A stretch of DNA of 64,000 nt from Pseudogymnoascus verrucosus (taxonomy: Eukaryota). The stretch lies in the NCBI GenBank assembly GCA_001662655.1, contig KV460207.1, one strand, 5' to 3'. Below are positions 413-21,350 of the stretch, in pieces. A program made the translations under genes and the position numbers. Below the pieces are notes generated by a model. The model did not search any database, was not told the origin of the DNA, and worked only from the letters and a program-made list of their open reading frames with translations. The stretch's first letter is position 1. Each line of letters begins with the position of its first letter.

Positions 413-1549
413 CTAAAAGATAGAAAGGATATTCGGAGGACTACACTCCAGAGTTAGCTACTTTTCATTGCGGTCACATTAGCCACTCCACATAAGCTTA
501 CCTAGCTACACCCCCGGTAACATTACACGGCTCACTGGTCACGAAGAAAGTGTATCTCTTCGTCGCTTCGCAATGTTTCGATAGCGCCTCAAGGTGGAAA
601 AGCTCTCCAATCGGCATCCCCCAGCCACCAAGCAAGACCTCATGCAGAAAGTAATCCTTCTGCGGAGGATAGCATTCGAAGGAAGGAGCATCGCCTCCAG
701 CCTACACACTAGAATATTAGCACCAACCATGATTTCATAATATAACCAATCAAAGCCAACTATCAAAGAACATACCGCAGCAAAATGATTATCCCATAAG
801 AACTCCAACATCTCCTCGCTCTGCTCTAATCCACTGAGCTGTGGTGGGCCCTCCCTCAATGCATGGAACCTCTTCTTCTCCTCATCGAGCTCTTCAAACG
901 CAGCGAACCACCCCGACCTTATAAGCAAAATATCACCGCGCCTAAACTCAGTACCCTGGAACGCCGCCACCTCCTTCAGCTGCCCCAAAGTAATCGAGCC
1001 CGTTGCAAATGGGTTGTAATCCGGCGACCCGCCCGTCTCTTTCCTCCATCTGTGGAAATCAAGCAATACTCCCCTTCCAACAATCCCCTTCTCGGCCATA
1101 TTATGTATCCCCAACTTATCCCCCGCTCCCTCTCCCACAATCTCTTGTTCTGTAGTGCCATTATAAAACAGCCTCTCCTTCTGGTACCCAAAGTGCCGTA
1201 GCCCATCCCACTGCGAGCTACACTGTGAGTTAAAGCTCCAGGTATCGTCACACACAACGCGAGGCGGAGCTTTCATGTAGACCTCGTGGTGGAAGGCGGC
1301 TCGGGCAAAAAATGGCGGGCAGAAGGAGCCGCGGGGAGTGTTCAAAGACCAATTTAGGGAGATGCGGTGGCCAGTGATGATGTTTTCGCGGGCGGCAAGG
1401 GCGACGAGGGGGGAGGTGAGTAGGTTGAGGGTGCCGAGTTCGTCGGAGGGGCCCCAGAGGCCCCAGGCTGAGTGGCGCGGGTGAGAAGGGGAGAGTGGGA
1501 GGGCGGAGAAGGGGGGAATATCTTTGAGGTTTCCATTTTGGGCTGCCAT
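413..1549 (-). CDS. Putative cyclase / kynurenine-formamidase-like metal-dependent hydrolase (3 exons: 1549-776, 701-502, 440-413; ~333 aa)
   Basis: Motifs AWGLWG..DELGTLNLL, SQWDGLRHF, GIVGRGVLLD, GDILLIRSG. Splicing at GT-AG sites restores the typical C-terminus LHEVLLGGWGMPIGELFHLE...TFFVTSEPCNVTGGVASPPNILSIF*. Confidence 0.85.
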
Positions 1550-2130
1550 TGTAGAGGAAATAAAAAACTCAATGATATAAGTATTGCTAAATATTACTCC
1601 GTGTTGCTGATTTGGTTTGTGGAATTGTTTTGATTTTAGAAACCCTTCAATGAGGGGTAACCCGAGGAAGCCATGTGGGCTGTGGCAGCTTTCACAACAT
1701 GCCCCTCAACCCATCCATGTTACCCCACGGGGAGATACGATTTGGTCGGATCCTCGACGATATTTCCGCAGCAATCCGAAGATACAACCGTACAACGCCC
1801 GTCGCCGGTAATAACATGTACTCTCTTGGCGCTTCTCCATGTTTTGTCCAAGAACCCCGCATTATGGGGGTATTCGGGTGTACTAGTGCAAGATTGGAGA
1901 ATTACTACTTGGCCGTTCCGTGGCAATACTCCGAACATTGGGGAAGTCAAAAGGTTCCCTTTGCCGAAAATAACCTCCTTCTTCATACATTATGGGTACC
2001 TTTTCATTTTCCTTTTCCCGCTTTGAAGTAGAGTTCATTTATAGCCTAGGGGTGCCGTCCATCTCGAAACAAAATCTGACGGATACTATTCTTCACACCT
2101 AAGAACGAATTGTTACAACAAACCGCTACA

Positions 2131-3238
2131 ATGCCAGGCCTACAAAGAATCAAAACTGAGTTGACCGACTTGCTCGGCATCAAGCATCCAATTCTCCTTG
2201 CTGGTACCTTTCCTCTTATCCTCCCTTCATCCCCGTCACGACCCACTAACCTGATTTCCAGGAATGGCACGGACATCCTCCGGTCTCCTCGCCGCCGCCG
2301 TTTCCAACGCTGGCGGCTGTGGTGTAGTAGGCGGCCTGAACTATACCCCAGAACAACTATTCTCCATCCTCAATGACCTCAAGGCAAACCTAAATGACCC
2401 TTCCCTTCCTTTTGGTGTGGATCTCGCCCTTCCTAAAATCGGCGCTGGCGCTCGAAAGACCAACCACGATTATACCCACGGACAGCTCGATGCTCTTATT
2501 GACGTCACCATCAATAGTGGGGCAAAGCTATTCGTGTGCGCTGTGGGAGTCCCACCCAAACATATCGTGGATAAATTGCATGCGAATGGCATTCTGGTTA
2601 TGAATATGGTGGGTGCCCCGAAGCATGCGAGGTATGCGCTTGAGGCAGGGGCAGATATGGTTTGCGCCCAAGGTGGCGAGGGGGGTGGGCACACTGGGGC
2701 GATCGCGACGAGCATTTTAATCCCGGCCGTCGTGGACGCGGTGCAAGGCTACAAATCTCCCATGACGGGCTGTACGCCACTGGTGATAGCCGCTGGCGGA
2801 ATACGCGACGGGCGCTCTCTGGCTGCGGCCCTGATGATGGGTGCAGCCGGCGTATGGGTCGGCACGCGCTTTGTGGCATCTGTGGAGGCGGGATGCTCGG
2901 AGGTGCACAAAGTCGAAGTTACGACTGCGACGTTTGACGACACAGTGCGAACGCTTGTGGTGAGTGGGCGGCCGATGCGGGTTAAGGCAAACGAGTACAT
3001 CAAGGCGTGGGAGAGGCAGCCGGAGAAGATTTTAGAGCTTACGCAGGCCGGAATTGTGCCGTATGAGAAGGATGTTGAAGACGGAGTGGAGGCCGACAGG
3101 CCATTTTTGATGGGGCAAGTTGCCGCGGTGATTGGAGAGATCGAGCCGGCAGGGAAGATTGTGGAGGATATGGTCGATGGGGCTGTTAAGATGCTGTCGA
3201 AAGGATCAAAGTTCATAGGGCTTGGGGCGCGGTTGTAA
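2131..3238 (+). CDS. Nitronate monooxygenase / 2-nitropropane dioxygenase-family (FabK-like) FMN oxidoreductase (exons 2131-2203, 2262-3238)
   Basis: Motifs LTDLLGIKHPILLAGM, LAAAVSNAGG, AQGGEGGGH, IAAGGIRDGR, GVWVGTRF. Ends in -ARL (PTS1). Confidence 0.9.
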
Positions 3239-3491
3239 TTTCTAGCAGTTAGAAGAAAATAAGCCAAGCTATATAAGTGAAGGAAGTTGGGGAGTATTTA
3301 AACGAAGCACTCTGGTTAGTTTATTGCAAATAGATAGATTGTTGGATGCTCAAATTACACAGAAACTACCAAAAACAGGACGCCTAGTTGCTAAATCCCA
3401 TATTCGTGGCAGCACCTCCCGACATAAAATCTTCTCGCCAAAACAGGAGAAAAATGACCCCTCGCTTAGTATTTACTCCTATCTTCCTCCC

Positions 3492-6107
3492 TTAAAAACC
3501 CGCCCTCATATCTTCTCCCTCCCCACTCTCCAGTATACTTCCTCCAAGATACATCCCAAACTGACTCTCCACATTCAGCAGCCCTTTTAACATATCCCAT
3601 CGAATATCGCTTGAGTCAAAGTTAAGATAATCGGGCGACGGTCCGCCCTCCTCGCAGACCGCAGGAGCATCGGTATTTATCCCGGCGATGTCGTTGTTGT
3701 GACTGAGGTCATACATACTAGAATTGACGCAGACAGTTGGCGGGGATAAGTGTAAGAGAGGTACGGCAGTGGAGTGGACGAACGGAGTAAGGTTTGTCAG
3801 GAGTAGTTGGTGTTCTGGGGTTGAGCTGTATGCGTCAGGCTGATGTGCTGAAAGTGGCGGCGATGGTGCATGGTCTGTACCCTCCCATGGTGCCTCTAGG
3901 TTAAAACTGAGCGTGTCGGCGAGAACGTGCAGAACTTCGAGGGACTTCTCTGCAGAAATGTGCCCCTTAGCAGCAGCCCGGAGCCCGCGCCACAGTATTA
4001 TGATATGCTGTGCGAGGGTGGCAGTCTGGGAGTCGGTAGCGTTATTACCATCAGCATTATGCATGACGTCTTCGGGGAGCGTCGAGCGCAACCGGTACGC
4101 AAGCAATAGTACGATGCTAGCACGGACAATATGCGTGCAAACCATGTCATTACAGCGGTGTGAGAAGACGTCTTCCCAATTCTCTGTGCGGGCCACGCGC
4201 TGCATAATACTTGCGGTGAGGGTGGCAATCTCGATGCTTTTCTTAAGGCAGAAGCTGCGCATGGCCCCGGAGAGGGTGCTATCCGTGAAATGGCGGCTGA
4301 AGAGGGCAAGGCGGGCCTGTTGGCCGACAAAGACGAGTTTGAGAGTTGATGGCTCAATGGCCGAGGTTTCGGACGGGTCGCAGAGGCCACCAGGGTACTT
4401 CTGCCAGCACGCAAAGAGTTGAGCGTCAATCCTCTTCATGGTTTCCATGTCACTGTCTTCGTAGTGCGAGAGAGCGCCAAACTGGATGATAGCGTCAAGA
4501 TTGATGACGACGGAGATGGAGGCGCGGAAAAAGTCGAACGATTCTGATGCCGTCGTGCCCTTGTTATCAATTTCATTCGGTAGATCCACGTCGCAGTCTT
4601 CGTCTAGGAGCGAAACGGGTCGCCCACATGTCAGGGCAACGACACGGTCCACTATATAGGCGCCCCAGAAGAGGCGGTTTCGCGACTCGATTTCAACGTT
4701 AAAGAGTTGATGCGGCGATGGCCGCTTGTGGAGGCCGAGGTCCTGTATTATGCGCGAGGTGATGCCTGTGATGACCCAACAGGGGCTCGGGAGAGAGGCA
4801 CCCATCAAATAGACACTCATAAGAAGGCTGATAATTGCATCGTCCAACGTGTAGCGTGCCTTGATCAGCCCTCTGCCATGATATTTTCGGGCGGCCTCAA
4901 AGAACTCCCATCCATTCTTCATCTGACGACCGCTATTGTGTCGGACTTCGGCTAAATCAGACATTTGTGCGCCAACAGCCCAAACCATCATAAGGATGGA
5001 GAAGTCGGCCACAATCTGGTCATGCTCGTAGTGTACAGGAGACCCCGTGTAAATGCGCTGGAACTTTATGAGGATCGAAGGCCAGTACAACATGGGTGTA
5101 TGTGCTTGGACACTGTTTCTGTACACCTCCAGCAGCTTAGCTCCGAGGGGCTGCGGTGGTAGCTGTGACCGCAACTCTGCTGATAAATTTGACTGCACAG
5201 CATCCTGACGGATCGTCTCCAAAGAAGGGCTCCACAACGCCCTTGATGATGGGAGTTCGTATCCTAGCTGTTGCACATATTCACGTACATTGTCTAGGAA
5301 GACCATTTCAGACGTTGCGCCAAAGAAGTGATGCGCCTTCTTCCCATCACCTGTGACATAGGACTGTAGACTCGAGGTGCCGTGGGTGGAGCGTCGCCTT
5401 CTCCGTAAACGGTCCGTATCTATGATCTCAGATGCAGATCCGCTGTCTGAAAGCACATCGGCCGTTCTCTTTGTTCCAGTAATAGAGCAACTTGGTGTCG
5501 GCACTCGAGTTTGAGACCCCTGGCGGGTATGGTTACTTTGGGATCCCGTTCCATTCACGCGTGCCGCACCCGGAATATTTTCAACTCGCTCTGATACTTT
5601 CTTTAAAGTCTGTTCAAGCTCACGAAGGCGCATCCTAATAGGCACGACATAAATACATGGTCTCCCAAGGGATGTTGAAACATGGATTTGAAAAGAACGA
5701 GCCATACTTACTCAGAAATCGCACTTGGTCCAGTGGATCTTGAAGCATCCGCCACCTCACACACAATGCCCGCAGAGACACACGAAGAGCATTGTCCTGT
5801 CCGTGACGTGTCACACTAGATACGAAAGAATCAGTCAACGTTAAGTCCCTTAGGATACCAATCGGCCATTTTCTTGGATGAAAGTTAAAACCTATGACTT
5901 TGCACATACCTTAGTTTTCCTAGTCCGGCACGCGTTACATGCTCTGCTCTCGCGCTGCCTCCTAAAAGGGCGCCTGAAGCGTGGTTGCTGGTTTTCTTCT
6001 GTACTTGGCAATCGAACAGCAGCTGAGACAGCACTAGGGGCAGCAGAAGGAGCATCAGACGGATCGTCAGTAGAGCGAAGATTCGGCACCAAGATTTCTG
6101 CCGCCAT
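3492..6107 (-). CDS. Zn2Cys6 transcription factor with fungal-specific TF (middle homology) domain (exons ~6107-5910, 5815-5712, 5634-3492)
   Basis: The spliced zinc cluster reads CNACRTRKTK|CDTSRTGQCSSCVSAGIVC. Later motifs are IQDLGLH, RNRLFWGAYIVDR..ALTCGRP and DVDLP. Confidence 0.9.
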
Positions 6108-6570
6108 AGCCGGTTCTTGAGGTCTTATGGTAGAAATTCTGCGTCTTGGGCACCCACATGGAAACCAGAGGTGTCCTAGTGTTGAATGAATCGAAACGGG
6201 GATGTGGATTTGGCAGGGAAACGATGAAGTTAGTGACTGCGGAAGGAGACTTCATCTACCGAATATGAAGGCAAAGTTAGTTGTAAGGTCATGACATTAT
6301 TACAGTGAGGTCGAAGACTCAACAGAGCAAGATGCAGGGAAGACGGCTAGTTCTCTAGGGCGTCATACAAAATCTGGGGTCAAAAAGTGGGGAAGGTATC
6401 CTGTAAACGATGCATACGAAGTAATACTGTAAGTGAACTAAGATAAATGCGTCCACTAACTTTGGCTACTATTAACAATCTGCGTGATGTTATTAGTAAA
6501 GAAGGAATTAAGTCTAGAGCAAACCAAGAGCCTCTGAAATCCCATATTTTCGGATATAAATATACCCTTC

Positions 6571-7132
6571 TTTGGACGCCGCCCTTTTAAATGTGTTCCG
6601 GCCCGGCCTATTCGCGAATGTGACATATTCGTAGTGGTTTGGCCGAAACAATGTTAATTGTATGAAACAGGGGGCAAGGTGTCACAACAGCAAGGATAAC
6701 ATAGCTAATAGATTAGTAGTTAAAAATCTGCTGCTTTTCAACTCGTGCGTATGATTATACTATGTATATGAATACTTACATAGGCCTTATTTTTCAGCAT
6801 GATAGTGCTCTTGGCCATTAGGCACATCAGACCTATGACCGACTACAAGAGCTTGGAATACCATGGATAAGATGGCCTGCTTCCTCACCAGACATGGGCC
6901 CAATTGAGGTTATAAGATTTTATGAAGGATTGGCTACAGAATAGGTATCATCCTAACGACCATAGGAGTTGCCATTGACGCGTGTAAAGGAGCACCTCTA
7001 GGGTGGGTTATGGAACTACTCTCGTAGGAGTCAAAGAGGAAGCGGTGTCAGACATTCATTGACGCACAAGGTGACGAGAGGAAGTACTGGATCAGGGCGG
7101 CACTTCCAAACCTACACAGTGAATGAACGTAT
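6571..7132 (+). mobile_element. Degenerate, internally deleted Tc1/mariner (DD34E) transposon relic
   Basis: 6783-6914 translates GLIFQHDSALGH*AHQTYDRLQELGIPWIRWPASSPDMGPIEVI, with D at 6801 and E at 6906 separated by exactly 34 codons. Frameshifted pieces MKDWLQNRY and RCQTFIDAQG..KY follow. Imperfect inverted repeats lie at 6571-6585 and 7094-7110. Confidence 0.8.
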
Positions 7133-7657
7133 ATTACCCCTGTTAAGACTAAGTCCTGTTTTTATTTTCCTCTTTAATGGAGGTACAATGGCGGAACGGT
7201 TGTTCTATCCGGGGGGCGCTAATTCCATATATGGTCGAGACTGGTGAGCAAGGTCCACGGCATTATGAAATTTAGCTGGGTATGTGGAAATAAAAAAGTT
7301 GCCTTGCCGACATCCGCGGATTATCATCCGTGGTAATACTTCGGGAGATTAGTCAGCAAGGAATACTAGCACGGGCTTTCCAAGAGACAAACGTCGCCAT
7401 GGTCGACTTGTTCCATCAACCTAGTGAGTATTGCTTCTGAATAGGCCTCTGACTGACATATGGAACTTGTTATAGAAATGCCTGATATTGTGAAGCTATC
7501 AAGCATTTGCGTCTGAAGATTCTTAAGGAGCGAAGAACCAATGTTATTAGCCTTCCTAGCCTGGTTATGATACGTATTTGGAACTCCAAGCCACATGCTC
7601 TCCCCCAAATGAGCATAAAAGCGTGAACAAAACCGCAATAACTTGTACTCCAATTCT

Positions 7658-9544
7658 CTATGTTGTGTACCGGAATTGCGGGTTCTAAGAAAATAGTTAG
7701 CCTCGATCTACAAAGCCGAATTGGCCAAGGAGAGAGAAGGTGACCGACCTTCCTGTCAGTGAGATCATCCTCATATGCATGGTCAAAGCCTTCTGGAATA
7801 CCAGCCTCGTCACGAATATCGTTATCCCGAACTGCGAGATACCAGTATATGGCAATCAGAGCCATGGTCGCCAGAGCCGTCGCGAGCACGCCGATGAAGG
7901 CAGGAGCGTATGCGGGTGCATCTTGCGGCTTGAAGAGCCTAAGACGTGGTTAATATATGTTGGATTGTTAGATAAATTTGAGAGAGGTAGGACCCACAAT
8001 GGCCCAATGAGATTCCCAACACAATAGCCGATGAAGACACCAGCAGCGTTCAACGTCCTCTTCGTATAACCAGCGCTATTTGCCATGACTACACCGAGGA
8101 GGACCGCATAAGTGCCTCCTAAAGAAGCAATGATATACGCGGCGAAGAGAAGCCCACCCTTGTTGCTTCGCGGAAGCTGCCACTGCAATATACACGAGAC
8201 AACTGTTGGTACTTGACAACATAACATAATAATACATCTCTTGTTCTTGAACTTGTAGGCGGCAAAAGCGGCAGCGAGCTCAATGCAACCCGTGATAAAT
8301 CCAGCTGGAATGGTAAGCAGTAGAGTGTTCAGCGGATTCAAACCAAAGTTTTGCACTATAATTGGCGTGAACGTCGAGTATGGTCCGTTCCCGACCATCA
8401 TCAGCAGCGCGATAAAGAAGTGCAGCCAAAAGCGGACGTCAAGTAGGGTCTCCATGACCTGCTCGCCCTTCCAGTGGGTATTACGCACCCCGGTATTATT
8501 CTCCTGCATGCGCGCCACGGCGATATACCGCTCACGGGGTGTGAAACCTCTTGCTCGGATAGGATCGGGAGGGAGAAAGAAGTATACTACTACAGCCCAT
8601 ATGATCGTGATGGCGCCGGCGACAAGGTACATGTACTTCCACGGGCTCAGCGAACCCTTGATCTGTCCAAGGCCGTAGTTGATTAAGGGTGAGACGACGC
8701 CGGCATAGCCCGTGCAACAGAACCACGCGCCCATGCGTAGTGCTTGCTCCTGCTTGCGGTACCAACCGCCGACGACGATCATGAAGATAGGGGAGACACC
8801 ACCCTCGAGCAAGCCGAGGAGGAAGCGCTGCGCCCAGAGACCTTGGTGATTGGTACATGCGGCGGTGGCCATGAGGCAGATGCCCCATACAAATATTAGG
8901 CCAGCGGCAACGCGTTCAATCGGGTACTTCTGTGCAAGTAGGGAGCAGGGATAAGAGCCGAATAGGAAGCCGATATAGAGGATTGCAGAGCTGAAACTGT
9001 CTATGTTGGTGCTTCGTTAGTCTTGGAAGACTCGCGACGTACTAAGGAGTAATAAGAGGAGGAAGCTTACATCGATTTCCGACGTTGAGATCTAGGTCAG
9101 TTCTGATGCCGAAGATGGCCTTGGAGATGTCAGTTTTCATATACCACGAACTAGATTTTAAATCCTAACTGACTGCTTGCGAGAGCATGGCTTTATCATA
9201 ATACTGTAAGCCATATCTGTTATCCTCAGTCAGCACAAGTTTAAACTGGTGTTTTGAAGAGTTTATTTTAATAGTACTTACGTGAAACACAAAATGGGAA
9301 GGAGCTGCCAGTCCAGTTTCCGGAGAAGCCTTTTTTCCTCCTCAGGGGACCATGCATCATCTCCGTGCTCCTGAGCAAGGACTTTTATGGCCTCATCGTT
9401 GTAAACAGTGTCGGCTGACGTGATCTTCAAGGAGTTAATCACTGCTTGGTCCGCTGCGATGTGGGTTGCAGATAAGGTCTTCTCGATGTCCTCTTTGTGG
9501 GTTGCAGATGAGGTCTTCTCGACGTCCTCCGTTTCGGAAACCAT
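7658..9544 (-). CDS. MFS permease, Dal5/allantoate (anion:cation symporter) family, multi-exon
   Basis: EEKRLLRKLDWQLLP, YGLQYYDKAMLSQA|AIFGIRTDL, RFLLGLLE, WYRKQEQALR, PWKYMYL, NSAGYTKR and C-terminal DLTDRK|NPQFRYTT*. The first four exons splice in frame. Confidence 0.9.
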
Positions 9545-10185
9545 TGTTGCGTCCAAGTTTGTTTCCAACTAGAACACAGTATGTGAGAGTATGTGAGATA
9601 GTATAGAAGAAAGAAAGGGGTCGTGAGTGATCTCTAGCAATGTGGAAAACTATTGCACTGATAATCCGGAGTAGAGTTCTAGATCTGGGTCTCCCAGGTT
9701 GTTTTAAACTCCTAGCACTGCTAAGGAATGCGGGGAAGTTTCCATGGAATTATTCCCCACCTCCACTATGTCCCCGGACTATAGCCCATCCCCACGGGAC
9801 AGCTCCTTCCCCGCAGCTACCCCAGACCAGTAATCGTATTGCCAAGAATCTCCCCAGATTATGAGAGTCTGTGCTGAAATGATGAAAGGCTAGTAACCGC
9901 CAAAGTCGGGATATCCACGGAATTCCGGGGAATTTGGTAAATTCGTAGCTATGTATGTGGCGTTCCATGGCAAGTTTGAGATTGCTCCGTGAAGTGGTCC
10001 ACGGGTGAGCATCCGCGGCTGTTGCCCAAAAGAATCCTGAACTCATGAACTCCTGAACTCCAAAACATCACATCACCAGTCGTACAAGCCATTCATGCGT
10101 CCGGATTTTTAATCCAACATCCTGTAACTGGTCGGCTAGATGAAATTTTGAGCTGTTAATACATACCCATGAGCATACTTTATCT

Positions 10186-10243
10186 TCTGCACACTTTATT
10201 ATCTGCACTTTGTTTCTGCACACTTTATTATCTGCACTTTGTT
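10186..10243. repeat. 29-bp tandem duplication (TCTGCACACTTTATTATCTGCACTTTGTT x2)
   Basis: Read directly from the sequence. Confidence 0.9.
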
Positions 10244-11006
10244 CCTGCAGTCTACCGAACTTTTTGTTCTCGGTGTTCTTCTTCCGATTGTCTAGAAGAG
10301 ATGGAACGATGGTTCAACTCCGTAATGAAACTCCCAGTGGCATCATAACTCTCCTCCCTTCCTAAAAGAAGGAAACCAAAAACAACAAAAATGCTTCTTC
10401 TTCCGATTTTAATACACAGTTTCAAGAATCTAATTGATTTAGCTACGGTTTACCTTACAAAAAAAACCTGTGATCCTCTATGGTGTTTAGAAGACTGGGT
10501 GACTCGTGAGCCGTGTTCTTATATCAAGAATTCTAAATGATGATCTAGAACCAAAGGAAGTAAAGTTTAAGTCTTCTTGGAGAGATCATGTCTATATTTA
10601 CCCAAGTACAGGCCGCTTTTTACAAATTATCTCACGGTATATAACGATCTAGGTAAGGTAGTTAAGTACTCTCTTCTTCGGCCGACGCTTTTCATTGTAT
10701 TCAGTGACCCTGTTGCACGTTAGTTGCTACGATACTTCTAGAGAACCTTTCCTGTAAATTAGCATATTTATCTATTCACTTTAAACATTTGTAGCACGGC
10801 ATAATATGTCGTGCGTTACGAATTGCAAGGGCCGGCTCATCGAACATCCTTTCCTTGGAACAACAGGTAGATACATCATGTATTCTAGTGACATTCAAGA
10901 GAGTTAATAATCGTGCGGCATGTACTCCGTATATGTAGATTTATGAAAGTAAAAGCTATGTATGAGAAAAAACGAGGCAATGTAGTGTCGAGGTAATAAC
11001 TCAACC

Positions 11007-13018
11007 TTAGAGCTCCTCAAGGCGCCCGTTCTTACCCTCATAGGGCCTCCCTGCCTCTCCCTCTGCAGCAACCGCGGCAACAACGACTCTCTCTTGGGGG
11101 GGGCTTTTTCTTAAAACTTTCTCTGTCGAGCTCTTCTTCTTCTGCACATAATCCCTCAAATACTCGTCATCTAAGTAAAACGTCACATCATCTTCTGGAC
11201 TGAACTCTTCTTTCGTAAACCCATTTCCGAGGTATCCCCACCGATTCCCACTCACATACTCAATTTCATAATCCTCATACTTCGGTTCCGCCATGTGGTC
11301 GAAAAACGCTAATCGGCTCCCTGGCCACATCACCAGCGGGCCATCTGTGGTTCCCTGCTTGAACCAACTCGAACACGGATCTACCCACGCCGTGCGCTTC
11401 AAATACATGGCCGCATGCTCTCCAAAATCCTTCGTAGCTCCCTCCTTCGGTGAGAGTCGCCTTATGTGCTCCTTACGCATCTTGCGAATGACTTGGAGGA
11501 AGTGCTTCGTTCCCAGTGTGAGCAGCGGCAGCACAGAGCCCTGTGCAACCGGAGAAAAGGGACCAGAGTACATGAAGTAGTTTGGAACGTTTGGGACGCC
11601 TACTGCAGCATACGAGAGTGGAAGCCCCGTCCATTTCTCTGATATAGATTTCCCGTCGAGGCCGATAATAGGGAACTTCGGGCGGAAGGAGGTGTCGAAG
11701 CCTGTGGCGCAAATGATCACGTCGACTTCAACTTCGGCACCGTCGGCAGTAATGAATCCATTAGGAGTAATGCCGCCAATAGTATCGGTATAGCAGGTCG
11801 TTTTCTCGCCGACGAGGCACTCGAGGTAGCCATTACCGGGCGTAGGGCGACGACAACTGACGTTGAAGTCTTTAGGAATAATCTTGTCGATGAGACCGGG
11901 GTTGTTGCTAAGCTTAATGCACATCTCCTTGTACGAGAACTCGTTCGCTTCGTCCGACTCTTCGGTGTTGCGCAGCACGAGCTTAAATCGCTGATTTAGC
12001 TCCAGCTCAATCATCTTCCTGTATTCTCTGTACTTCTCCGGGTCGTGGGCCCATTCTGCCTTCTGCTCATCTGTGTACTGAAAGTTTGCGCCATTGGGTC
12101 CTGCAAACTTCTGCCCAAAACCTGCTGTGATCCAGGTGGGACTGCGTACCCATGTATACAACTTTGAAACGTCTTTATAGATGGAGGCGACGACTTGGAC
12201 GCCGGAGCTTCCAGACCCTATCACAGCAACGCGCTTGCCCTTGAGGTCATAGCCCGTCTCATAACGCGCTGTGTGAAACATCTTTCCCTTGAACGTATTG
12301 AGTCCTGGGATTGTTGGCCATTTCCATGCACTGCATTCTCATATTAGTTTGCTTCTCAAATAGCATGGAAATGCAACACATACTTCAGAAATCCCGTGCC
12401 GTTCAATAATAAATCTGCATCCTCATGCCATTCCTTTACCACATTTCCCGCCTGATCTTTCTGCGCCAGGCTAATAATCCACCTTGACCTTTCTTCCTTC
12501 CACACGGCCTCCTTCACTTCCGTGCGCAGCGTAATATACTTATACATATCCTCCTTTGTCGCAATCATCTTCATATATTCCCAAATCTCCTTCGAGCCCG
12601 AGTAATAGCTTGTCCAATTTGGATTTGGGCACCAGGCAAACTGATAGCTAGCACTGGGAATATCACATGCACACCCGGGGTAGCGATTCTCAAACCATGT
12701 CCCACCAACATCCGAATTCTTTTCAAAAACCGCAAACTCCACGTTGAGTTGTGGGAGCGTTTGCACGGCATGATGCAGAAAATCAATGCCGGCGGCGCCG
12801 GCGCCGATGACCACGACTTTGAAGGGTTCAGCAGGAGGCTCATTGATCATGAGCTCGTTAATGCGGTAGCCGTTCTCAGAAACGGCATCATAGGAGGGGT
12901 GGTAGGCTGGGCGTTGCTTGGACGATGGGTGAGCTTCTGTGGTGTTGCTGCCAATGCGTAGGCCTTCCGGACGCACGAAAGTTGAAGAGTTGACTTCAAA
13001 GTCGCTGTAGTCTCCCAT
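11007..13018 (-). CDS. Flavin-containing monooxygenase, Baeyer-Villiger (StcW/MoxY-like) type (exons 13018-12384, 12330-11007; ~652 aa)
   Basis: GAGAAG FAD motif, GGTWFENRYPGCACD, FKGKMFHTARY fingerprint, GSGSSG NADPH motif, ATGFD, CSSWFK. Confidence 0.9.
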
Positions 13019-13696
13019 TTTCAAGGATGGATATAAAAATTGCAGGACAAAAAATGAAGAGCGCTAGTGGTAAAATGTGAAAAGCACGTAAGTTAAGGGA
13101 GAAGATATATAATCAAAGTGGCGTCTATTAAGATAAAGACCAGGCCTATGGTGATTCAACTTGCTACCTTGGGCAAGATGATTTGATGCTATAGATTGCC
13201 TCTTTTCTGCCGAGGCATATCCGACAACAGCTTAAAGAATAACCTCCAAGGTTACCGCAACAAGAAGGGTATTCAGATAGACTCCGGGCCGCGATCCGTT
13301 CCCTCCGGACTGGGGCCGCAACAGAAGAAAAGTGCTTCCAGCGGCTGTGGGTAACGGAAGTTCATCGGTTCGTGAACGTTTTGAGTCCAAATGTGGAATG
13401 TGGGTGAAACGACCATGGTGGCACGCGGGGTAGGTAACCGGGGTTACACATTGTGTAAATCGTTGTATTATATCCGTGGAAACCACGGAGGAGAATCCAC
13501 AGTTCAGGGTTTACTAATAATACAGCTTAGATATTAATGATTTTGGTGGAACAACACCAATAATAAACACTAAAGATAAATGAGTCGTATTTGCTTGAAA
13601 CTTGACTGTGTTATATGATTCCATATCTGCCGCAGCGCCTCGAATATTAAAAGTGTTTGCCTTATTTTATGGCAGATGGGAGCAGATCAAAACTTC

Positions 13697-14681
13697 TCAC
13701 AGCTTTGTTGCCGCACTCTCGATAGACAAAAGCGCCCTCCCGTTATTCAACACCTCCTGTCCTTCTACGCTCGTCCTAAACAACACCTCCTGCAACCCAT
13801 TCTCTCTCCCCATTTTCCACATCTCTACTAACAGCGTGTCTCCCGGATACACAACCTTCTTAAACCTAGCCTGAAACTCCCTCAATCTTCTCCCATCTCC
13901 TCCTGCAAATGTACTCACCACCGCGTGTGCGCTCATGTTCCACGTACAAAGCCCATGCAAAATAATCCCCTTAAATCCCGCTTTCTTCGCCACCACACCA
14001 TCACAGTGTAAAGGATTATAATCCCCATTCAGTCGATATAAATGCGCCGTCTCTTTGGTTGTAACTTGCGTATATACCGCGTCTGACTGCCGCTTCGGTG
14101 GCACATATACCGTCTCCTTCTCTTTTTTCGGGCCGCCCCAGCCGCCTTGCCCAACAGCAAAGCTTTGTCGTAGAATGCGGCAGTACTTTGTGCCAGTGAG
14201 GGTATCCACGAGCACTGCTTCGGTCTCAGTAATCATTCCTGCGGGTCCCTTGTCTGCGACGCCGAGACAGGTAATCTGCAGCTCAAATGCGTGGTCGGTG
14301 GAAGAGGCGGGGAGTGGTTGGAATATTTGGATGTGGCGCTGGCCATCAAGGACGCGGGTTTGGTCAACGGGGGGGACACCTGGGATGGCAGGGGTGCGTG
14401 TTGTGGTATAATAGTCGATAATGCTTTGGTAGGAGCCTTTGAATTGCAGGATCACTGGGTATGTAGGGAACGACTGGAAGTCTGGGTGGAGCTCCTGAGG
14501 ATTTGTTAGATTGCGAGATTTTTTAGGACACCTAGGAGGTAAGACAAACATTTAGAAACTGTGACTCGTAGGCTTTGCATCCGATGCTCGTGGAAAAAAG
14601 GAGGGAGTCGCGCTTGTTCCATGAGCAAGGGACACTAGGGAACTTGAATCCTGCGCCAGGCAGCTTCACAGGTGAGGCCAT
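13697..14681 (-). CDS. MaoC-type (R)-specific enoyl-CoA hydratase 2 / peroxisomal dehydratase (exons 14681-14550, 14494-13697; ~309 aa)
   Basis: Hydratase-2 motif YRLNGDYNPLHCD, plus ILHGLCT and ARF..VVYPGDTL. Ends in -TKL (PTS1-like). Confidence 0.9.
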
Positions 14682-15397
14682 TTTTTTTGTCTTGCTGTAT
14701 GATGATAAATTATGGAAAAGGGGTGATATTTTAAAATAAATAGAGCAGAATCGTCGTATATTTCTAAAATTGATCAAAGGTTTAATGATAATTTGGATTG
14801 TAGCCAGGTGTATCCTCTTCGCAGTCATGCTAGTGTAGAATGCTCGATTACTAGTTTCCCTCCTACCTAACTAGTTATCCCCATGATCAAGGTAGATAAA
14901 GTATCTACTGCCGTCTAATAGCCACAATTCGGTGCAATGTGAGCAATAGAATACCTTCCGGCATCTACTAGATAAGCGGTTTCCGGTTGTTGTGCCGCGG
15001 AAGGCGTTCACACTAGAATGCGGAGAAAGGGCGGGGTGTTGTTGACACTACAGTGCGGGGAAAGCACCACAGCCACGGAAACCCAAGCTAAATCCTCTAA
15101 ATGACAGACCGGCTAAAAACATGAAGGTACTTGATAGGAAAACAACTACAAGCAGTACAAACAGGAAATTTTCAGCGCCAGAACTTTATAGCTTCTTAGA
15201 ATTTTTGATATATGAACTCAGTCATGAAGGAGGGGTGATTATATTTAAAATCAGAAGGTGCTAATATTTGAGAAAATTTTACTGTAGATTGCCAGTAAAA
15301 TTCCTGATTTGAGCTTGACCAACGATTACAAAGATCAATTTCTTCGCAAACAAAGCATCAAGTATGTGCATTTTATATATCTTGACTCATTTCTTTC

Positions 15398-17121
15398 TTA
15401 TGCCGTCTTTGTGGGCCACGTAGTCCTCCTCCTCGCTCTAACGTACAAATTCATGGGCCTAATCAGCTGGAAATCCGGATCATAATCAACAACCCCATGA
15501 CTTTCCTTACTAAACTCGTACCTGTATAGTAGCTCGGAAAACAAGATTTTGACCTCTTGCAGCGCAAAATTAAATCCAATGCATCCTCTTGGCCCTGCTG
15601 CAAATGGGACATAGGCGCACCGATGTCTCTTTTTCACAGCCTCCGTGTCCCACCTTGCAGTATCAAAGCGCAGTGGGTTCTCCCATATGTCGGGGTTAGT
15701 ATGAATTGCATACAACGCAGGGACTAGCACAGCATTGGCGGGCAGGTGCCAGCCGCCGGGGAGGATGACGTCCGTTTTTGTAGTTCGGGCAGGCTGGAAG
15801 GAGGGATTATGGAGGCGCTGGGTCTCCTTGACGAATTTGTCTAGATATTTGAGATTCGCGGCGTATTCGGGGGTCCAGGTGATATCGTTGTTGATGTCCG
15901 AGTCGATTAACTCTTGGAGGAGGCGCTCTTGCTCTCCGGGGTAGGTGATGATGGAGTAGATCATCCAGGAAAGTAGTGCAGAGGTCGTCGTAAAGCCTGC
16001 GGCTGTCATGATGACCATGTTGGGTAATATGAGGTCTTTTGGTAGCTTTCGGCCGTTCTCGTCAATGGCGCGATTGAGGTAATCGACCACACAGGTTGCT
16101 TTCAAGGCAGCATCGGCCATGGGCAGATCAGGTTTGTCGCGGGAGTCTACTGTGTCCATCGCACCTTGTAGCCTAGAGTAGGTCCGCTGTTGCATATCCT
16201 TCAGCCTCTTCGGGTCTCCAAAGGGTAGTGCCCCATACCAATCACCACGGGCCGTCACTTTCTTATTCAAAAGTAGCATATCTGCAATGTCGTGAATTAT
16301 CGGATCGACGGGAGAGTCTGGTTCGTTGAAGTGGCCGAAATCGAGGCCCAAGCAGAACTTTCCGATGGTCTGCGCTGCAAGCTTGTGCATGTATTGATAG
16401 ACGTTCAAAGTTTCACCGGTCGCATCTATCGCATCAAAAACCTTGAATGACCCCCGCACTGTTTGCTCCATAAGAGGAGTATAATGACGGATTGCGTTTG
16501 GGCTAAGTGATGGGGGCAGAAATTTATGATTTTGTTGCCAGGCCTTTGTTTCTGTGTCACCAATGAATATTGCCGTGTTGTCTTTGATCCCCCATAGAGG
16601 ATGGTCGGAAGTAATCTTTTTAGTGAAGTATATGGATTCGCTGAAAAGGTATCCAGCAATCACTGGGTCATCGGTATGATAATTGACCTTGCCCATATTG
16701 ACAGCCTTAACAACGGATCCATATTTCCTCAACAGACGAATAATATTCCCGAGATGGTCCGGAAATATCTCATAGTATGACCCAACGCCTGGAAACCCCT
16801 TGGGTCCAAGTACTTCGCGAACAGGTTGACCATTAATAGTGATTCCTATAGGAGTGGTGGCATCGAAAATGGCCCCCAGGTCTTCTATCGCACCATGTTG
16901 ATCTGTTTGAAAACAGATACCTATATATTATTTTAGCGATAGCTCTGAGCGACGGGGAACTGACAAGTTTAATCCTTACCAGTTGGTTCAATAATGTGAA
17001 ATTCGAGACCAAGATTGGTTTTCAGCGTCTTTAGATCCAGGATTGAATCCACATCAACCTCGCGTGTTGAGGGAGGCGTAACTCCAACCAGATAGAACAC
17101 CCGCGTTCTGTTGACAGTCAT
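15398..17121 (-). CDS. Cytochrome P450, probably CYP540-like, without N-terminal membrane anchor (exons 17121-16980, 16920-15398; ~554 aa)
   Basis: Heme motif FAAGPRGCIG, K-helix ETQR, I-helix AAGFTTTS. The reconstructed N-terminus MTVNRTRVFYLVG...GITINGQPVREVLGPKGFPGVGSYYEIFPDHLGN has no transmembrane helix. The family name is from recall. Confidence 0.9.
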
Positions 17122-17716
17122 GATACTGAATTTGTAGCTTCTTTCCTGTTTCTGAAATATTAAACTGGGTTACAGAATAGAGCTTTAAGAAGATCAATCT
17201 TCTCTGATTATAAAATGCGAGAACGATTTATTAGATTCAAGTGTAGATATGTCCTTGAGATAGATAATAAAATGAAATACCCGTGACGTACATGGATCCC
17301 TTTCACTACCGTGCTACACTTACAGGTATTCACAATTCCCATGCCAAGTGGTCCATAAACTAGTTATACCCTTGGTTATACAAGCACATTTTGCCTCGGA
17401 AAGTTGCCGCGGAAAGTTTTATAGTTCTTGATATGGAGAGTCTAGGTTAGCAGAAACGATATCCCAAGGTACCATGTTTAGTGCATTGGGGTGGAGTCTG
17501 GTACTGTCGTGCCCTGAACTCCGCGGGCTCTTCTCGGCAGGGGCAATTGACCGGGATGATGTACGCTTCACGTGTGGGACTAAAATTATTCAACGTATTA
17601 TGATTCTCATACAATATGCTGCTCAACGACATGACATCCGGGGAGAGCATTATTTATTGCTTGCTCTCGAGGTTACATTGCCATTTTTCATTCATACAGG
17701 ACTACAACAATATACA

Positions 17717-19251
17717 ATGACCACATCGTACACATTGGAAGAAGTGGGCAAACATGTCACTGATAAAGACTGCTGGATTGTTATACACAATAAAGGTAAT
17801 TAGGAGCTATAATAGACTCCATGCTCTGCTAGTTGAATAAGCGGTTCTGACAGCTCATAGTTTACGATGTAACAAGTTACTTCGAACTACATCCTGGTGG
17901 CGCAGAAGTCCTTCAAGAATATGGCGGTCTCGATGCCACGGAGCCATTTGAAGATGCAAGCCACTCTGATAGTGCCTGGGAAACAATGAACTCACTCATA
18001 GTGGGCGAGCTGGCAGAAGAAGTGAGTTGGCAGTTTTTCATTGGAGCTGTTATATAGGATACCAGCTAATTCCTTTTCTTGCAGTACCGACAAGCAGATC
18101 ATGTTTATTACAAAACCACACATGAACACGTTGAAGCCGCTCCTATATTAGCAAAAACTTCGACAGCGAAAAGGATTAAAAGCTTGTTCACCAAAGCTCT
18201 TGCTCTTAGCTTAACGGGAAGCCTTGTTTACTTTGGAAGGCCACTCCTCTCCACCCGTTGGCTGTCAACTGGTCTTCTCACCAATCAACTTCTACGCATC
18301 CGTATCGGGAAAACTTCTACGGACTTTTGGTATGGCTACCTCAGTTCCGTAGCCACAACTTCCCTGCTCGTGATGAGCGCTGGCTATCTCGCCGTGAATA
18401 AACTCAGCAGCGGCGGCGGCCATGGCGGACCCAGCTTGCCCGCTCGCTCAAAGCCCACGTTTAGAACATTGAAGAAGCCCTCGACTATCACGCCACCTGA
18501 AGCACCGATTCTAGCCACTCGTTCGTATCGAAAATTCCCGCTTGTGCACAAGAAAGAGCTCTCACCAAACGTGTATCTACTAGTATTCTCCTTGCCATCG
18601 CCCACGGCTGTCTTACCCCTGCCAACAGGCCAGCATGTCTCCGTGATGGCCGAGATTAACGGTCAGAGTGTCAGCCGCTCATACACACCGATATCAAACT
18701 ATAAAGATCCCGGCGTGATCGAGCTGGTCGTCAAGGTGTACCCGACTGGCCTTCTCACACCGCACCTCGGCAATCTGAACGTCGGCGACGCCGTTGGTTT
18801 CCGTGGGCCGATCGGCGCTATGAAATACAAATCTGGGTTAAGCAAGCGTATTCTCATGATCGCCGGTGGCACCGGCGTAACGCCCATGTATCAAGTCATC
18901 CGGGCAATCTGCGAAGATGAAGCAGATGACACAACAGTGACGCTGCTCTATGCGAACAATAACTTGGAGGATATTCTCATGAAGGAGAAACTGGATGCGT
19001 GGGCGGCGGCGCATCCAGGGAAATTTTCAGTCTCCTACGTTTTAGTAAATCCCCCGAATGGGTGGAAGGATGGGACGGGGTTTGTGTCGAAAGAGATGAT
19101 TCAGCAGAAGTTAGAGGGGGGTCTGGATACAAAGGTCATGCTTTGCGGGCCGCCGGGGATGGTGAAGATTATGAAGACGCATCTTTCTGACATGGGGTTT
19201 CCGGTTCCGGGGGCGATTTCAAAGGCGAGTGATCGTGTGTTTGTATTTTAG
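17717..19251 (+). CDS. Cytochrome b5 - NADH:cytochrome b5 reductase fusion protein (exons 17717-17795, 17861-18021, 18085-19251; ~468 aa)
   Basis: The b5 domain YTLEEVGKH..DCWIVIHNK|VYDVTSYFELHPGG...DATEPFEDASHS splices in frame to a hydrophobic linker. The reductase domain has GQH, RSYTPIS, GGTGVTP and CGPPGM. Confidence 0.9.
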
Positions 19252-19469
19252 CTGGAAGAACCTTTGTCAGATGTTCGGGATGCAATTTGTCACATTGCTA
19301 TAAAACACTATACTTTCTTTGAATTCTATTTTATAGATAGTCTGGTTATATAATCTCCTGTCTCCTGGTAAATTATCGCATTCAGAACTACAAAGCCAAT
19401 TTCATTTACCAATTACTACACTTTCAACATCTTACACTAGAAATGGGACTACTGGCGGGTGACACGCAC

Positions 19470-19527
19470 GGGTGTGATGGGTGCGACGGGTGCGACGGGT
19501 GCGACGGGTGCGACGGGTGCGACGGGT
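19470..19527. repeat. 9-bp minisatellite (GGGTGCGAC)x~6
   Basis: Read directly, upstream of the thiolase gene. Confidence 0.9.
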
Positions 19528-19920
19528 TCTCCATGAGCACGCCCCATGTCCCACATCAACTGGGACCGCCAGACCCGCATTTTACCCCGTACTCTGTACT
19601 CCGCATTTTCGGTCTTGTTGAAGTAACGAGCCAATCAGTCATGGCGACTCTTCCTCATGTGTGTAACCGTCCCTTTACCGCGGGGATGTCAACCGCGGGC
19701 TCGGTATCTATGAGCTCGGCAGAACAATCCAATCTTGACTTCGGCTCTGCCTATGACGGTATCCAGCTGTCCTGGCTGAGATGCGAGCTCATATTCCCAT
19801 CCCCGGAGTGCACATAGTGGAGCATATTTCTCGAGCATGAAGGTCTTGCCTCACCAGTCTCACTTTCGCCAATTGATTAACCTCTTGTTGGATAATACTT
19901 GTGTAGCAACTTTGATAATA

Positions 19921-21350
19921 ATGGCCGCTCTTCAAAAGGTATACGTCGTCGGTGTGGGACTGACCAAATTCGTCAAGCCAAGAGGACTCGTCGACTATCC
20001 CGACCTGGGCTTCGAGGCTGGTGTCAAAGCCCTTTTGGATGCGGGAATAAACTATGATGAGGTCCAGCAAGGCATTGCTTGCTATGTATATGGCGACAGC
20101 ACATGCGGCCAACGTGTTTTCTACCGCTTTGGTGAGCTTGTTCCCGGCGAAACATTTTTATCAAGTGTAGATGCTAATCTACCCTCTTCTCCGTTTCAGG
20201 CATGACCCAAATCCCCATCTATAATGTAAATAACAATTGCTCGACCGGCAGCTCCGGCATCTACCTTGCACGGCAGCTCATCTCCCACAACGCCGCAGAT
20301 TGCATCCTCGTCGTCGGCTTCGAAAAGATGTTCCCCGGCTCCCTCAAGACAAACTTTCCCGACCGAACACCCCCCAATGACCGCACCGTTGCCATGATGC
20401 GCGCCACTCGCGGCTTTTCTGACACCACTCCCCGCGCGCCTCAAACTTTTGGCAATGCTGGCAGAGAGTACATGGAGAAGTACGGCGCGACAGCCGATGA
20501 CTTCGCAGAGATCGCCCGTATCAACCATGCGCATAGCGCGAAGAATCCGTACTCACAGTTCCGCGACGTCTATAGCCTTGAGCAGATCAAGAACTCACCG
20601 ATGGTTCACGCGCCCCTCACAAAGCTTCAGTGCTGCCCGACTTCTGACGGCGGCGCCGCGGCCGTTATTGTATCCGAGAAGTGGCTTGAAGCGCACCCGC
20701 ATCTCAAGAGCCAAGCAATACTCATCGCCGGCCAGCATATGGCAACCGACAGCCCGGCGTTATACTCGCGATCGGCTATCGACCTCGTAGGGATGGAGAT
20801 GACACGCACAGCAGCGCGTGTAGCCATGTCCGAGGCAGGAATTACAGCCGCAGATGTCAAAGTCTGCGAGCTGCACGACTGCTTCTCCGCAAATGAGATG
20901 ATCACTATAGACGGTTTGGGGCTCTCGGCTCCGGGCAAAGCGCACGAGCTTGTTCGCGCCGGCGGAATCACGTTTGGTGGGCAGGTAGTGGTGAATCCGA
21001 GCGGTGGCCTGATTAGCAAGGGACACCCGCTGGGAGCGACGGGACTGGCGCAGTGTGCAGAGCTGTGCTGGCATTTGAGAGGATGGGCAACGAATCGCCA
21101 TGTGGAGGGCGCGAGGTATGCACTGCAGCATAACCTTGGGTTGGGAGGGGCGGCGGTGGTGACAGTGTATAAGAGGGCGGATGGGAAGTTGAATGGGCTG
21201 GTAGAAGATGTGGCGGGGGTTAGTAAGTCAAAGTATAATCCTGCTGTTGAGGCGAGAGAGCCGACGCAGGAGGATGTGGCGACGGTTATTAGTCGAACAA
21301 AATCAAGTGAGTGGATGGTTACAGAGAAGAAAATACAGGCCCAGTTGTAA
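19921..21350 (+). CDS. SCP2/SCPx-type thiolase without SCP2 domain (exons 19921-20131, 20200-21350)
   Basis: [32 protein letters not shown] (catalytic Cys), [32 protein letters not shown]. Ends in -AQL. Confidence 0.92.

Follow-up and report, generated by a model that had tools for sequence, protein, structure and literature searches.

In Aspergillus nidulans, the gene for a soluble cytochrome P450, CYP540A2 (AN8919), adjoins that for CBBR (AN8920), a natural fusion of an N-terminal cytochrome b5 and a C-terminal b5 reductase through which the P450 is supplied with electrons from NADH (Kojima et al. 2025, PMC12462446). As described there, the pair hydroxylates the beta-carbon of free C7-C12 fatty acids, and weakly that of C14 and C16 acids, to give (R)-3-hydroxy acids with an optical purity of 98%. 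A neighboring dehydrogenase, bHDH (AN8921), oxidizes the hydroxy acids further to 3-oxo acids, and the latter enter beta-oxidation by way of an unlinked 3-ketoacid CoA transferase. The cluster genes are induced by C8-C10 acids, deletion of CYP540A2 or CBBR leads to more cellular decanoic acid, and the system is located to the cytosol. The published clusters consist of the P450, CBBR, bHDH and a transcription factor (AN8918 in A. nidulans), with the P450 and CBBR genes mostly head-to-head; 714 such clusters are reported across 662 strains, in many Ascomycota (PMC12462446). This is the one functional study of CYP540 that we found.

Here we describe a locus of Pseudogymnoascus verrucosus that contains a counterpart of this P450-CBBR pair in a different setting. 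It occupies positions 413-21350 of a 64-kb stretch of contig KV460207.1 (assembly GCA_001662655.1), which we refer to as the window, and encodes, in addition to the P450 and the fusion protein, a Zn2Cys6 transcription factor, a predicted type I Baeyer-Villiger monooxygenase (BVMO), a stand-alone enoyl-CoA hydratase 2, an SCP2-type thiolase, and three further proteins. An earlier, sequence-only reading of the window had interpreted the nine genes as a cluster that has a regulator of its own and degrades acyl chains oxidatively, and this general idea holds. We favor, with moderate confidence, the view that the locus represents a modified form of the P450-dependent beta-oxidation cluster of fungi and serves to degrade or detoxify medium-chain (or similar) carboxylic acids in their free form; the substrate could be branched or cyclic, but it need not be. 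The P450-CBBR pair is already known, and what appears to be new, as judged from sequence, is the presence of hydratase-2, a paralogous SCP2-thiolase and a BVMO in place of bHDH.

Gene models were built from frame translations, with GT..AG junctions picked by coordinates. All nine models are free of internal stops after intron removal, and the ends of the locus are the outer stop codons, that of the cyclase-family gene at 413 and that of the thiolase gene at 21350. A first Pfam scan gave family matches for 11 of 22 open reading frames (ORFs), covering the nine-gene stretch; a second matched 8 of 22, and a third found only Fig1 among 24 ORFs. The nine genes are therefore contiguous and intact, as the sequence-only reading had stated on the basis of the letters, and its second observation was likewise borne out, in that none of the 68 window ORFs scanned with Pfam has a polyketide synthase, non-ribosomal peptide synthetase or terpene synthase domain.

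The P450 and the cytochrome b5/b5 reductase fusion

The predicted P450 (554 aa; 15398..17121, minus strand, two exons at 17121-16980 and 16920-15398) has a Pfam p450 match with an E-value of 2.3e-57, and its model agrees with a deposited Pseudogymnoascus protein (P0001) at 550 of 554 residues. Its nearest solved relatives are CYP4B1, CYP3A and BM3-type enzymes. Pfam assigns no family to the first 86 residues, the p450 match starting at residue 87, and this N-terminal extension is kept in all five homologues examined, from Cladophialophora, Aspergillus and Sordaria. CYP540A2 has a 79-aa N-terminal domain that is absent from other P450s and to which no function has been assigned (PMC12462446), and the primer with which CYP540A2 was cloned codes for an N-terminus that shares an F-Y-L-I-G motif with the window protein (PMC12462446 supplement). 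The carboxylate of the substrate is positioned in CYP540A2 by Ser431 and Gln542 (PMC12462446). In the window P450, Ser421 (in SFQP) and Gln532 (in FQLIRP) are 111 residues apart, which equals 542 minus 431, and the same spacing between the SFQP serine and the FQLIRP glutamine is common to all five P450 proteins compared; the putative mapping is one of motif and distance.

The fusion gene (CBBR-like, 468 aa; 17717..19251, plus strand, three exons) is arranged head-to-head with the P450 gene, the two start codons being at 17121 (minus) and 17717 (plus) and the 595 bp between them (17122..17716) forming a shared promoter. The cytochrome b5 domain (PF00173, 8.7e-16) is split over exons 1 and 2, and exon 3 contains FAD_binding_6 (PF00970, 3.8e-28) and NAD_binding_1 (PF00175, 2e-31), so that the domain order is b5 followed by reductase. 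The locus therefore resembles the A. nidulans cluster in its soluble P450 with an extra N-terminal domain, its head-to-head b5/b5 reductase fusion, its clustered transcription factor and its Ser/Gln spacing. By architecture, gene arrangement and motifs, we consider the predicted match of the two proteins to the CYP540A2-CBBR system to be well supported. By analogy, the pair most likely constitutes an NADH-driven fatty-acid hydroxylase that would act at C3 of the free acid and produce the (R)-alcohol.

Because of this match, an ordinary medium-chain acid is the simplest substrate, and the unusual acid (branched, cyclic or N-containing) that the sequence-only reading had proposed is possible but not required. 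That reading had also not recognized the combination of genes as a described pathway. This was incorrect for the P450 and the b5/b5 reductase, which correspond to the CYP540A2-CBBR system, but it stands for the extended set, since we did not find the combination of P450-CBBR with hydratase-2, SCP2-thiolase and BVMO in the literature searched.

P450s with more than 40% identity to a named member are placed in the same CYP family. Among the matches listed, the window P450 is 72-85% identical to proteins of cluster-bearing taxa and ∼57-65% identical to others, including Aspergillus homologues of the same architecture, and it forms a sub-clade of its own. Two apparently fused gene models occur among its relatives. 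One (P0373) is a 1190-aa Pseudogymnoascus protein in the 90%-identity cluster of the P450, and the other (P0031) is an 821-aa Aureobasidium protein with both p450 and Fungal_trans domains, which suggests that a regulator adjoins a CYP540-like gene in Aureobasidium too.

Conservation of the grouping

A scan of metagenome contigs with exon 2 of the BVMO yielded five loci (142 pattern matches, of which six were confirmed). One of these, L001, covers 21 kb of a contig of 128 kb, and a local tblastn search with the nine window proteins matches six of them there, at 67-92% identity. The genes follow one another as thiolase (−), CBBR (−), P450 (+), hydratase (+), BVMO (+) and Zn2Cys6 factor (−), which is the order of the window with the regulator inverted and no permease between. 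Identities are 67-83% for the regulator, 76-82% for the BVMO, 74-85% for the hydratase and 70-80% for the fusion protein, and the P450 and CBBR genes are again head-to-head. The cyclase-family protein, the NMO-family protein and the permease have no tblastn match on L001. Two other loci, L002 and L004, have a BVMO match only.

Part of the set is also found together in a second, independent lineage, three species of Cladophialophora, where it spans up to six consecutive locus tags. C. bantiana has the thiolase Z519_04016, the BVMO Z519_04017 (74% identical to the window protein) and the P450 Z519_04021; C. psammophila has the P450 EXJ68022, the BVMO EXJ68026 and the thiolase EXJ68027; and C. 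immunda has the BVMO CLAIMM_03718 and the P450 CLAIMM_03722. No literature mention was found for six locus tags. The linkage appears to have outlived a rearrangement, because the thiolase adjoins the BVMO in Cladophialophora, unlike in the window. In all seven Pseudogymnoascus strains for which both are listed, the locus tags of the P450 and the BVMO differ by two, although these strains are not independent support because they are all of one genus.

From these comparisons, the grouping of six genes (those for the regulator, BVMO, hydratase, P450, fusion protein and thiolase) appears to be beyond chance, as the genes are co-located elsewhere. The sequence-only reading had named, as a finding that would refute it, genes that are never co-located in other genomes; six of them lie together on L001 and a subset does so in Cladophialophora. 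Its nine-gene cluster is accordingly retained for these six, but not for the three genes that have no match on L001.

Alternatively, the functional unit might consist of the P450, CBBR and transcription factor only, with the BVMO, hydratase and thiolase belonging to other pathways and kept in place by linkage or by one shared rearrangement. The published clusters comprise P450, CBBR, bHDH and transcription factor alone, and none of the three additional enzymes is named there as a cluster member; the words “Baeyer” and “MaoC” are absent from the paper and its searchable supplements, and “thiolase” appears there solely where conventional genes are listed (PMC12462446). Distant homologues (≤66% identity) of the BVMO and the CYP540 protein are non-adjacent in each of the four species that allow a comparison (Aspergillus tubingensis, Pycnora praestabilis, Penicillium riverlandense and P. 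paradoxum), and promoter comparison gives no shared conserved motif. Against this, the genes occur near one another in Pseudogymnoascus, on L001 and in the three Cladophialophora species, their linkage persists in the latter despite a different gene order, and the thiolase is predicted to be a cluster-specific paralogue (see below). We therefore regard this explanation as improbable.

Supplementary Table 3 of the published study has ten Pseudogymnoascus rows of P450/CBBR clusters, in a layout whose column split is uncertain (PMC12462446). Some of these rows may represent the present locus, scored as P450, CBBR and transcription factor.

Several other observations concern the distribution of the genes and their neighbors. 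Orthologues of the BVMO (67-76%) are present in many Onygenales (Paracoccidioides, Blastomyces, Histoplasma, Coccidioides, Trichophyton and Ophidiomyces), and Helicocarpus (65%) is the only Onygenales entry among the best 120 P450 matches; the Onygenales could hold a reduced form of the module. When the P450 and the BVMO are each clustered at 90% identity, the named members come from P. verrucosus and several other Pseudogymnoascus strains, and the lack of a P. destructans label among them is no evidence of absence. Beyond the regulator, L001 encodes a short-chain dehydrogenase/reductase (17548-18378) and a zinc alcohol dehydrogenase (19294-20370), neither of which is in the window. We considered these two as the missing dehydrogenases of the route and rejected them as unrelated neighbors, because the former is closest to acetoin/2,3-butanediol dehydrogenases (4.5e-51).

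The thiolase, hydratase and BVMO

The thiolase (453 aa; 19921..21350, plus strand, two exons) has Pfam Thiolase_N and Thiolase_C_1 domains, and residues 2-325 of its exon 2 match the zebrafish SCP2-thiolase type 1 (6hrv) at 1.1e-113, in agreement with the class assigned by the sequence-only reading. The model contains GHPLGATG, and its motifs include what we take to be the thiolase catalytic Cys and HDCF-type His motifs. Among the matches listed, a few best homologues stand at 72-86% identity, and below them lies a plateau of 66-71% from many Pezizomycotina, in which the commonest length is 458 aa.

A tree of 24 sequences separates these two groups. It includes the window protein, P0241-P0246, P0248, P0249, P0364 and 14 others chosen for taxonomic spread, leaves out P0247, P0250 and ∼98 listed matches, and is rooted at the midpoint only. 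The ten high-identity, “cluster-type” thiolases form one clade (support 100/99), apart from 13 housekeeping sequences that include the Leotiomycetes Botrytis, Drepanopeziza, Scytalidium and Oidiodendron; in this midpoint-rooted tree, the Capronia epimyces thiolase branches beside the cluster-type clade. The C-terminus is A-x-L in nine of the ten cluster-type proteins (P0246 ends in SV) and [AS]RF in 12 of the 14 others. A cluster location is known for only three cluster-type proteins, those of the window, C. bantiana and C. psammophila. On this basis, the window thiolase is predicted to be a dedicated, cluster-linked paralogue of the housekeeping SCP2-thiolase. A cluster-type thiolase (80% identity) is also present in Malbranchea. 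The peroxisome proteome of Histoplasma includes a “lipid transfer protein” that bears a PTS1 (PMC13343957); it may or may not correspond to the SCP2-thiolase homologue and is given no weight here.

The hydratase (309 aa; 13697..14681, minus strand, two exons) has a MaoC domain (PF01575, 1.3e-26) and the N-terminal domain of MFE-2 hydratase-2 (PF22622, 1.6e-6). Its solved relatives are a MaoC-like dehydratase (3kh8, 2.4e-37), the human MFE-2 hydratase (1s9c, 3.3e-35) and peroxisomal enoyl-CoA hydratase 2 (7mku). The sequence GDYNPLH fits the catalytic pattern G-D-x-N-P-[LIV]-H, and one position departs from the longer hydratase-2 motif (N for S/T/G/C). The protein is predicted to be an (R)-specific hydratase-2, given that its relatives are (R)-specific MFE-2 and ECH2 enzymes, and the stereospecificity claimed in the sequence-only reading is upheld by 1s9c and 7mku.

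The predicted BVMO (652 aa; 11007..13018, minus strand, two exons at 13018-12384 and 12330-11007) has FMO-like Pfam matches on both exons. All of its solved relatives at E <1e-10 are BVMOs or flavin monooxygenases filed alongside them, and they include cyclohexanone, steroid and phenylacetone monooxygenases (4e-30 to 2e-24). Type I BVMOs are recognized by two Rossmann motifs, the fingerprint FxGxxxHxxxW[P/D] and the motif GGxWxxxx[F/Y]P. The window protein contains GAGAAG, GSGSSG and GGTWFENRYPG, and the fingerprint region reads FKGKMFHTARY, with Tyr replacing Trp.

Hydratase-2 and SCP2-thiolase are also the fold families of mammalian peroxisomal branched-chain and bile-acid beta-oxidation, which uses MFE-2 (D-bifunctional protein) and SCPx. 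The window proteins differ in that both are stand-alone, without dehydrogenase or SCP2 domains, and have a P450 system and a BVMO as cluster neighbors. SCP2-type thiolases and SCPx are classically linked to 2-methyl-branched or bulky substrates. The substrate could then be an unusual acid (2-methyl-branched, isoprenoid, cyclic or bulky), for which the P450 and BVMO would unblock beta-oxidation, and the SCP2-thiolase and hydratase-2 would handle branched CoA esters in the manner of MFE-2 and SCPx. The type 1 match of the thiolase points in this direction, as do its maintenance as a paralogue beside the housekeeping enzyme, which suggests a specialized substrate, the distinct sub-clade of the P450 within the CYP540-like family, and the cyclic and steroid ketones used by the nearest solved BVMOs. 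We nevertheless consider such a substrate rather unlikely. The putative carboxylate-binding Ser and Gln are retained in the P450, the core on L001 is not accompanied by a conserved ring-opening hydrolase, CoA ligase or acyl-CoA oxidase, and the sole characterized relative of the P450-CBBR pair uses plain C7-C12 acids (PMC12462446).

A more specific version concerns the side chains of sterols, steroids or bile acids, which the hydratase-2 and the SCP2-family enzyme would shorten and from which the BVMO would cleave the C17 acetyl group. A steroid monooxygenase is among the solved relatives of the BVMO (5.8e-26), SCPx takes part in bile-acid synthesis, and in parts of the literature on bacterial cholesterol side chains, a MaoC hydratase gene recurs beside a gene of the SCP2-thiolase family (Ltp2/Sal). 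The bacterial Ltp2 and Sal proteins are aldolases that lack the thiolase cysteine; unlike them, the window protein keeps the presumed catalytic Cys and His motifs and is closest to true SCP2-thiolases. The P450 is CYP540-like, with putative fatty-acid carboxylate contacts, and not of the sterol hydroxylase type, and no ring-degrading genes are present. A role in steroid degradation is thus very improbable.

Proposed pathway

We return to the preferred reading, that of a variant P450-dependent beta-oxidation cluster. By analogy with A. nidulans, electrons from NADH would pass through the fusion protein to the P450, and a free fatty acid would be beta-hydroxylated to the (R)-3-hydroxy acid. The A. 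nidulans cluster has bHDH, a FadB-type dehydrogenase with a YWTD domain, for the following step. No counterpart was found among the ORFs scanned at the window locus, and three enzymes (the hydratase, the thiolase and the BVMO) may have been recruited in place of the dehydrogenase. The (R)-3-hydroxy acid would be activated with CoA by unlinked enzymes, and the hydratase would interconvert (R)-3-hydroxyacyl-CoA and 2-enoyl-CoA; the stereochemistry of hydratase-2 suits the pathway because the product of the P450 is expected to be (R). A general peroxisomal (R)-dehydrogenase may also accept (R)-3-hydroxyacyl-CoA, and the 3-ketoacyl-CoA would be cleaved by the dedicated thiolase. Free 3-oxo acids that escape would readily decarboxylate to methyl ketones, which the BVMO could turn into acetate esters, to be followed by hydrolysis.

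There are chemical precedents. Penicillium roqueforti produces 2-pentanone from hexanoic acid and ethyl-3-oxohexanoic acid (PMC3985342), and several yeasts convert dodecan-2-one to decyl acetate by Baeyer-Villiger oxidation (PMC4192553). The latter belongs to the subterminal ketone route of bacteria and yeasts, which the present proposal resembles in a type I BVMO that potentially acts on 2-alkanones. It differs in the origin of the ketone, which is alkane oxidation in the subterminal route but would be a 3-oxo acid from the P450 route in the window, and in that no esterase is conserved with the core.

The sequence-only reading had pointed to the absence of a CoA ligase and a 3-hydroxyacyl-CoA dehydrogenase. 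In the comparison with L001, the core is accompanied by no conserved esterase, CoA ligase or dehydrogenase. The problem is smaller than that reading supposed, because the published route uses free acids and enters beta-oxidation via an unlinked 3-ketoacid CoA transferase.

In a bolder form of the proposal, which we offer tentatively and consider rather unlikely, the locus would carry out a largely oxygenase-driven shortening of toxic medium-chain acids that partly bypasses CoA, next to a parallel (R)-specific CoA branch, and the module would have been moved or kept as a unit between Leotiomycetes and Chaetothyriales. The CoA-free branch would lead from the (R)-3-hydroxy acid to the 3-oxo acid, the methyl ketone, the acetate ester, and finally an alcohol two carbons shorter plus acetate; the parallel CoA branch would consist of hydratase-2 and its own SCP2-thiolase paralogue.

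Several points weigh against the preferred reading. Domains of bHDH (3HCDH, YWTD), one of the genes that define the published cluster, are absent from the ORFs scanned across 1-27 kb of the window, and neither of these domains is found in the scanned ORFs of L001. The CYP540 membership of the P450 and the mapping of its Ser and Gln, although well supported, derive from motifs, spacing and architecture and not from an alignment with CYP540A2, and because the P450 forms its own, separate sub-clade, its substrate may differ from C7-C12 straight-chain acids. The classical service of SCP2-type thiolases on 2-methyl-branched or bulky substrates favors the bulky-acid view. The C-termini ARL (NMO-family protein), AQL (thiolase) and TKL (hydratase) hint, at most weakly, at peroxisomes, whereas the published system is cytosolic (PMC12462446). 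In Cladophialophora, the BVMO and P450 are separated by three further genes, and the distant BVMO and CYP540 homologues are, as described above, non-adjacent. Finally, the part given to the BVMO in the route is pure inference.

The same enzymes could in principle serve synthesis, with a fatty-acid-derived signal or metabolite (a 3-hydroxy oxylipin, a lactone or an ester) being made by controlled chain shortening. (R)-3-hydroxy acids and BVMO-derived esters are plausible end products, and the locus has its own regulator and, in Pseudogymnoascus, a transporter. There is little to recommend this explanation, however, given that none of the 68 ORFs scanned encodes a core synthase, and that the homologous system behaves catabolically, being induced by its substrate and accumulating decanoic acid upon loss (PMC12462446).

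Regulator, promoters and peripheral genes

The transcription factor (814 aa; 3492..6107, minus strand, three exons at 6107-5910, 5815-5712 and 5634-3492) has a Fungal_trans domain (3.1e-22) and a Zn2Cys6 motif, C-x2-C-x6-C-x8-C-x2-C-x6-C, which is found at residue 57 of the spliced model and crosses an intron. It is likely to be the pathway regulator.

Candidate binding sites were sought in the promoters. The shared P450/CBBR promoter contains a 13-bp direct repeat, TTGCCGCGGAAAG (2.2 copies, 17391-17418), and an 8-mer survey of seven promoters returned only TATAATCA. The 10-mer CCGCGGGCTC has exactly two copies in the 64 kb, at 17521-17530 in the P450/CBBR promoter and at 19693-19702 upstream of the thiolase gene. 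With one mismatch there are seven matches against 4.6 expected, a number reached in 17 of 100 shuffles, and L001 has one such match against 1.35 expected. We do not claim TTGCCGCGGAAAG or CCGCGGGCTC as regulator sites, because the statistics are weak and the alignment of the P450/CBBR intergenic regions of the window and L001 has no clear conserved block. A 9-bp tandem repeat, ACGGGTGCG (6.7 copies, 94% matches), is located at 19468-19527, ∼400 bp upstream of the thiolase start.

The three genes without a match on L001 may be local Pseudogymnoascus additions or mere neighbors. The cyclase-family protein (333 aa; 413..1549, minus strand, three exons at 1549-776, 701-502 and 440-413) matches Pfam Cyclase (PF04199, 1.9e-12), and its sole solved relative is an uncharacterized protein (5ibz, 4.6e-17). 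The cyclase/kynurenine-formamidase family has a His-rich metal motif, HxGTHxDxPxH, in place of which this protein reads SSQWDGLRHFG, as positioned by eye and with no alignment. The NMO-family FMN protein (349 aa; 2131..3238, plus strand, two exons) matches Pfam NMO at 1.6e-48. It is FabK-like, in that its top seven solved matches are FabK-type (7.5e-34 to 4.8e-24; six named enoyl-ACP reductase and one putative nitroalkane dioxygenase), with true nitronate monooxygenases at ∼1e-17.

The third gene encodes a permease of the major facilitator superfamily (MFS) with 524 aa (7658..9544, minus strand, six exons). The sequence-only reading had called it a Dal5-type permease. The superfamily is confirmed (MFS_1, 1.2e-28), but the Dal5 label is not, since a solved relative was sought and none was found, and the Atlas gave generic MFS clusters only; the C-terminal end presumably resembles those of Dal5-type permeases, and a match to the subfamily was not obtained. 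The first exon contains a 36-bp repeat (9460-9529, 1.9 copies, 94%), which results in a duplicated acidic peptide near the N-terminus.

To the left of the cyclase-family gene, the edge of the window has an 11-bp tandem repeat (10-108, 8.7 copies, 74%) and an ORF on the minus strand (57-395) with no Pfam match. The remainder of the window contains genes that are apparently unrelated to the locus: Fig1 (24611-25383), an SBF-family transporter (39153-40128), an MFS protein (40973-42112), AIM24 (43388-44257), a kinesin (45229-47229), a CP2/grainyhead-type factor (50956-53421) and an oxysterol-binding protein (58439-59185).

Implications

The 2025 description of the CYP540-CBBR system does not explain how fungi without bHDH deal with the (R)-3-hydroxy and 3-oxo products. 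The present locus offers a testable answer, in that the P450 pair is joined, in at least two fungal classes, by a predicted (R)-specific hydratase, an SCP2-type thiolase of its own and a BVMO. If the proposal is true, P450-dependent beta-oxidation would gain a connection with (R)-specific enzymes of the peroxisomal type and with the metabolism of methyl ketones, and the locus would provide a soluble enzyme set with which to make or remove 3-hydroxy acids, methyl ketones and esters. Since medium-chain acids are harmful to microbial cells (PMC12462446), the module may, speculatively, also bear on the tolerance of soil- and skin-associated fungi to these acids.

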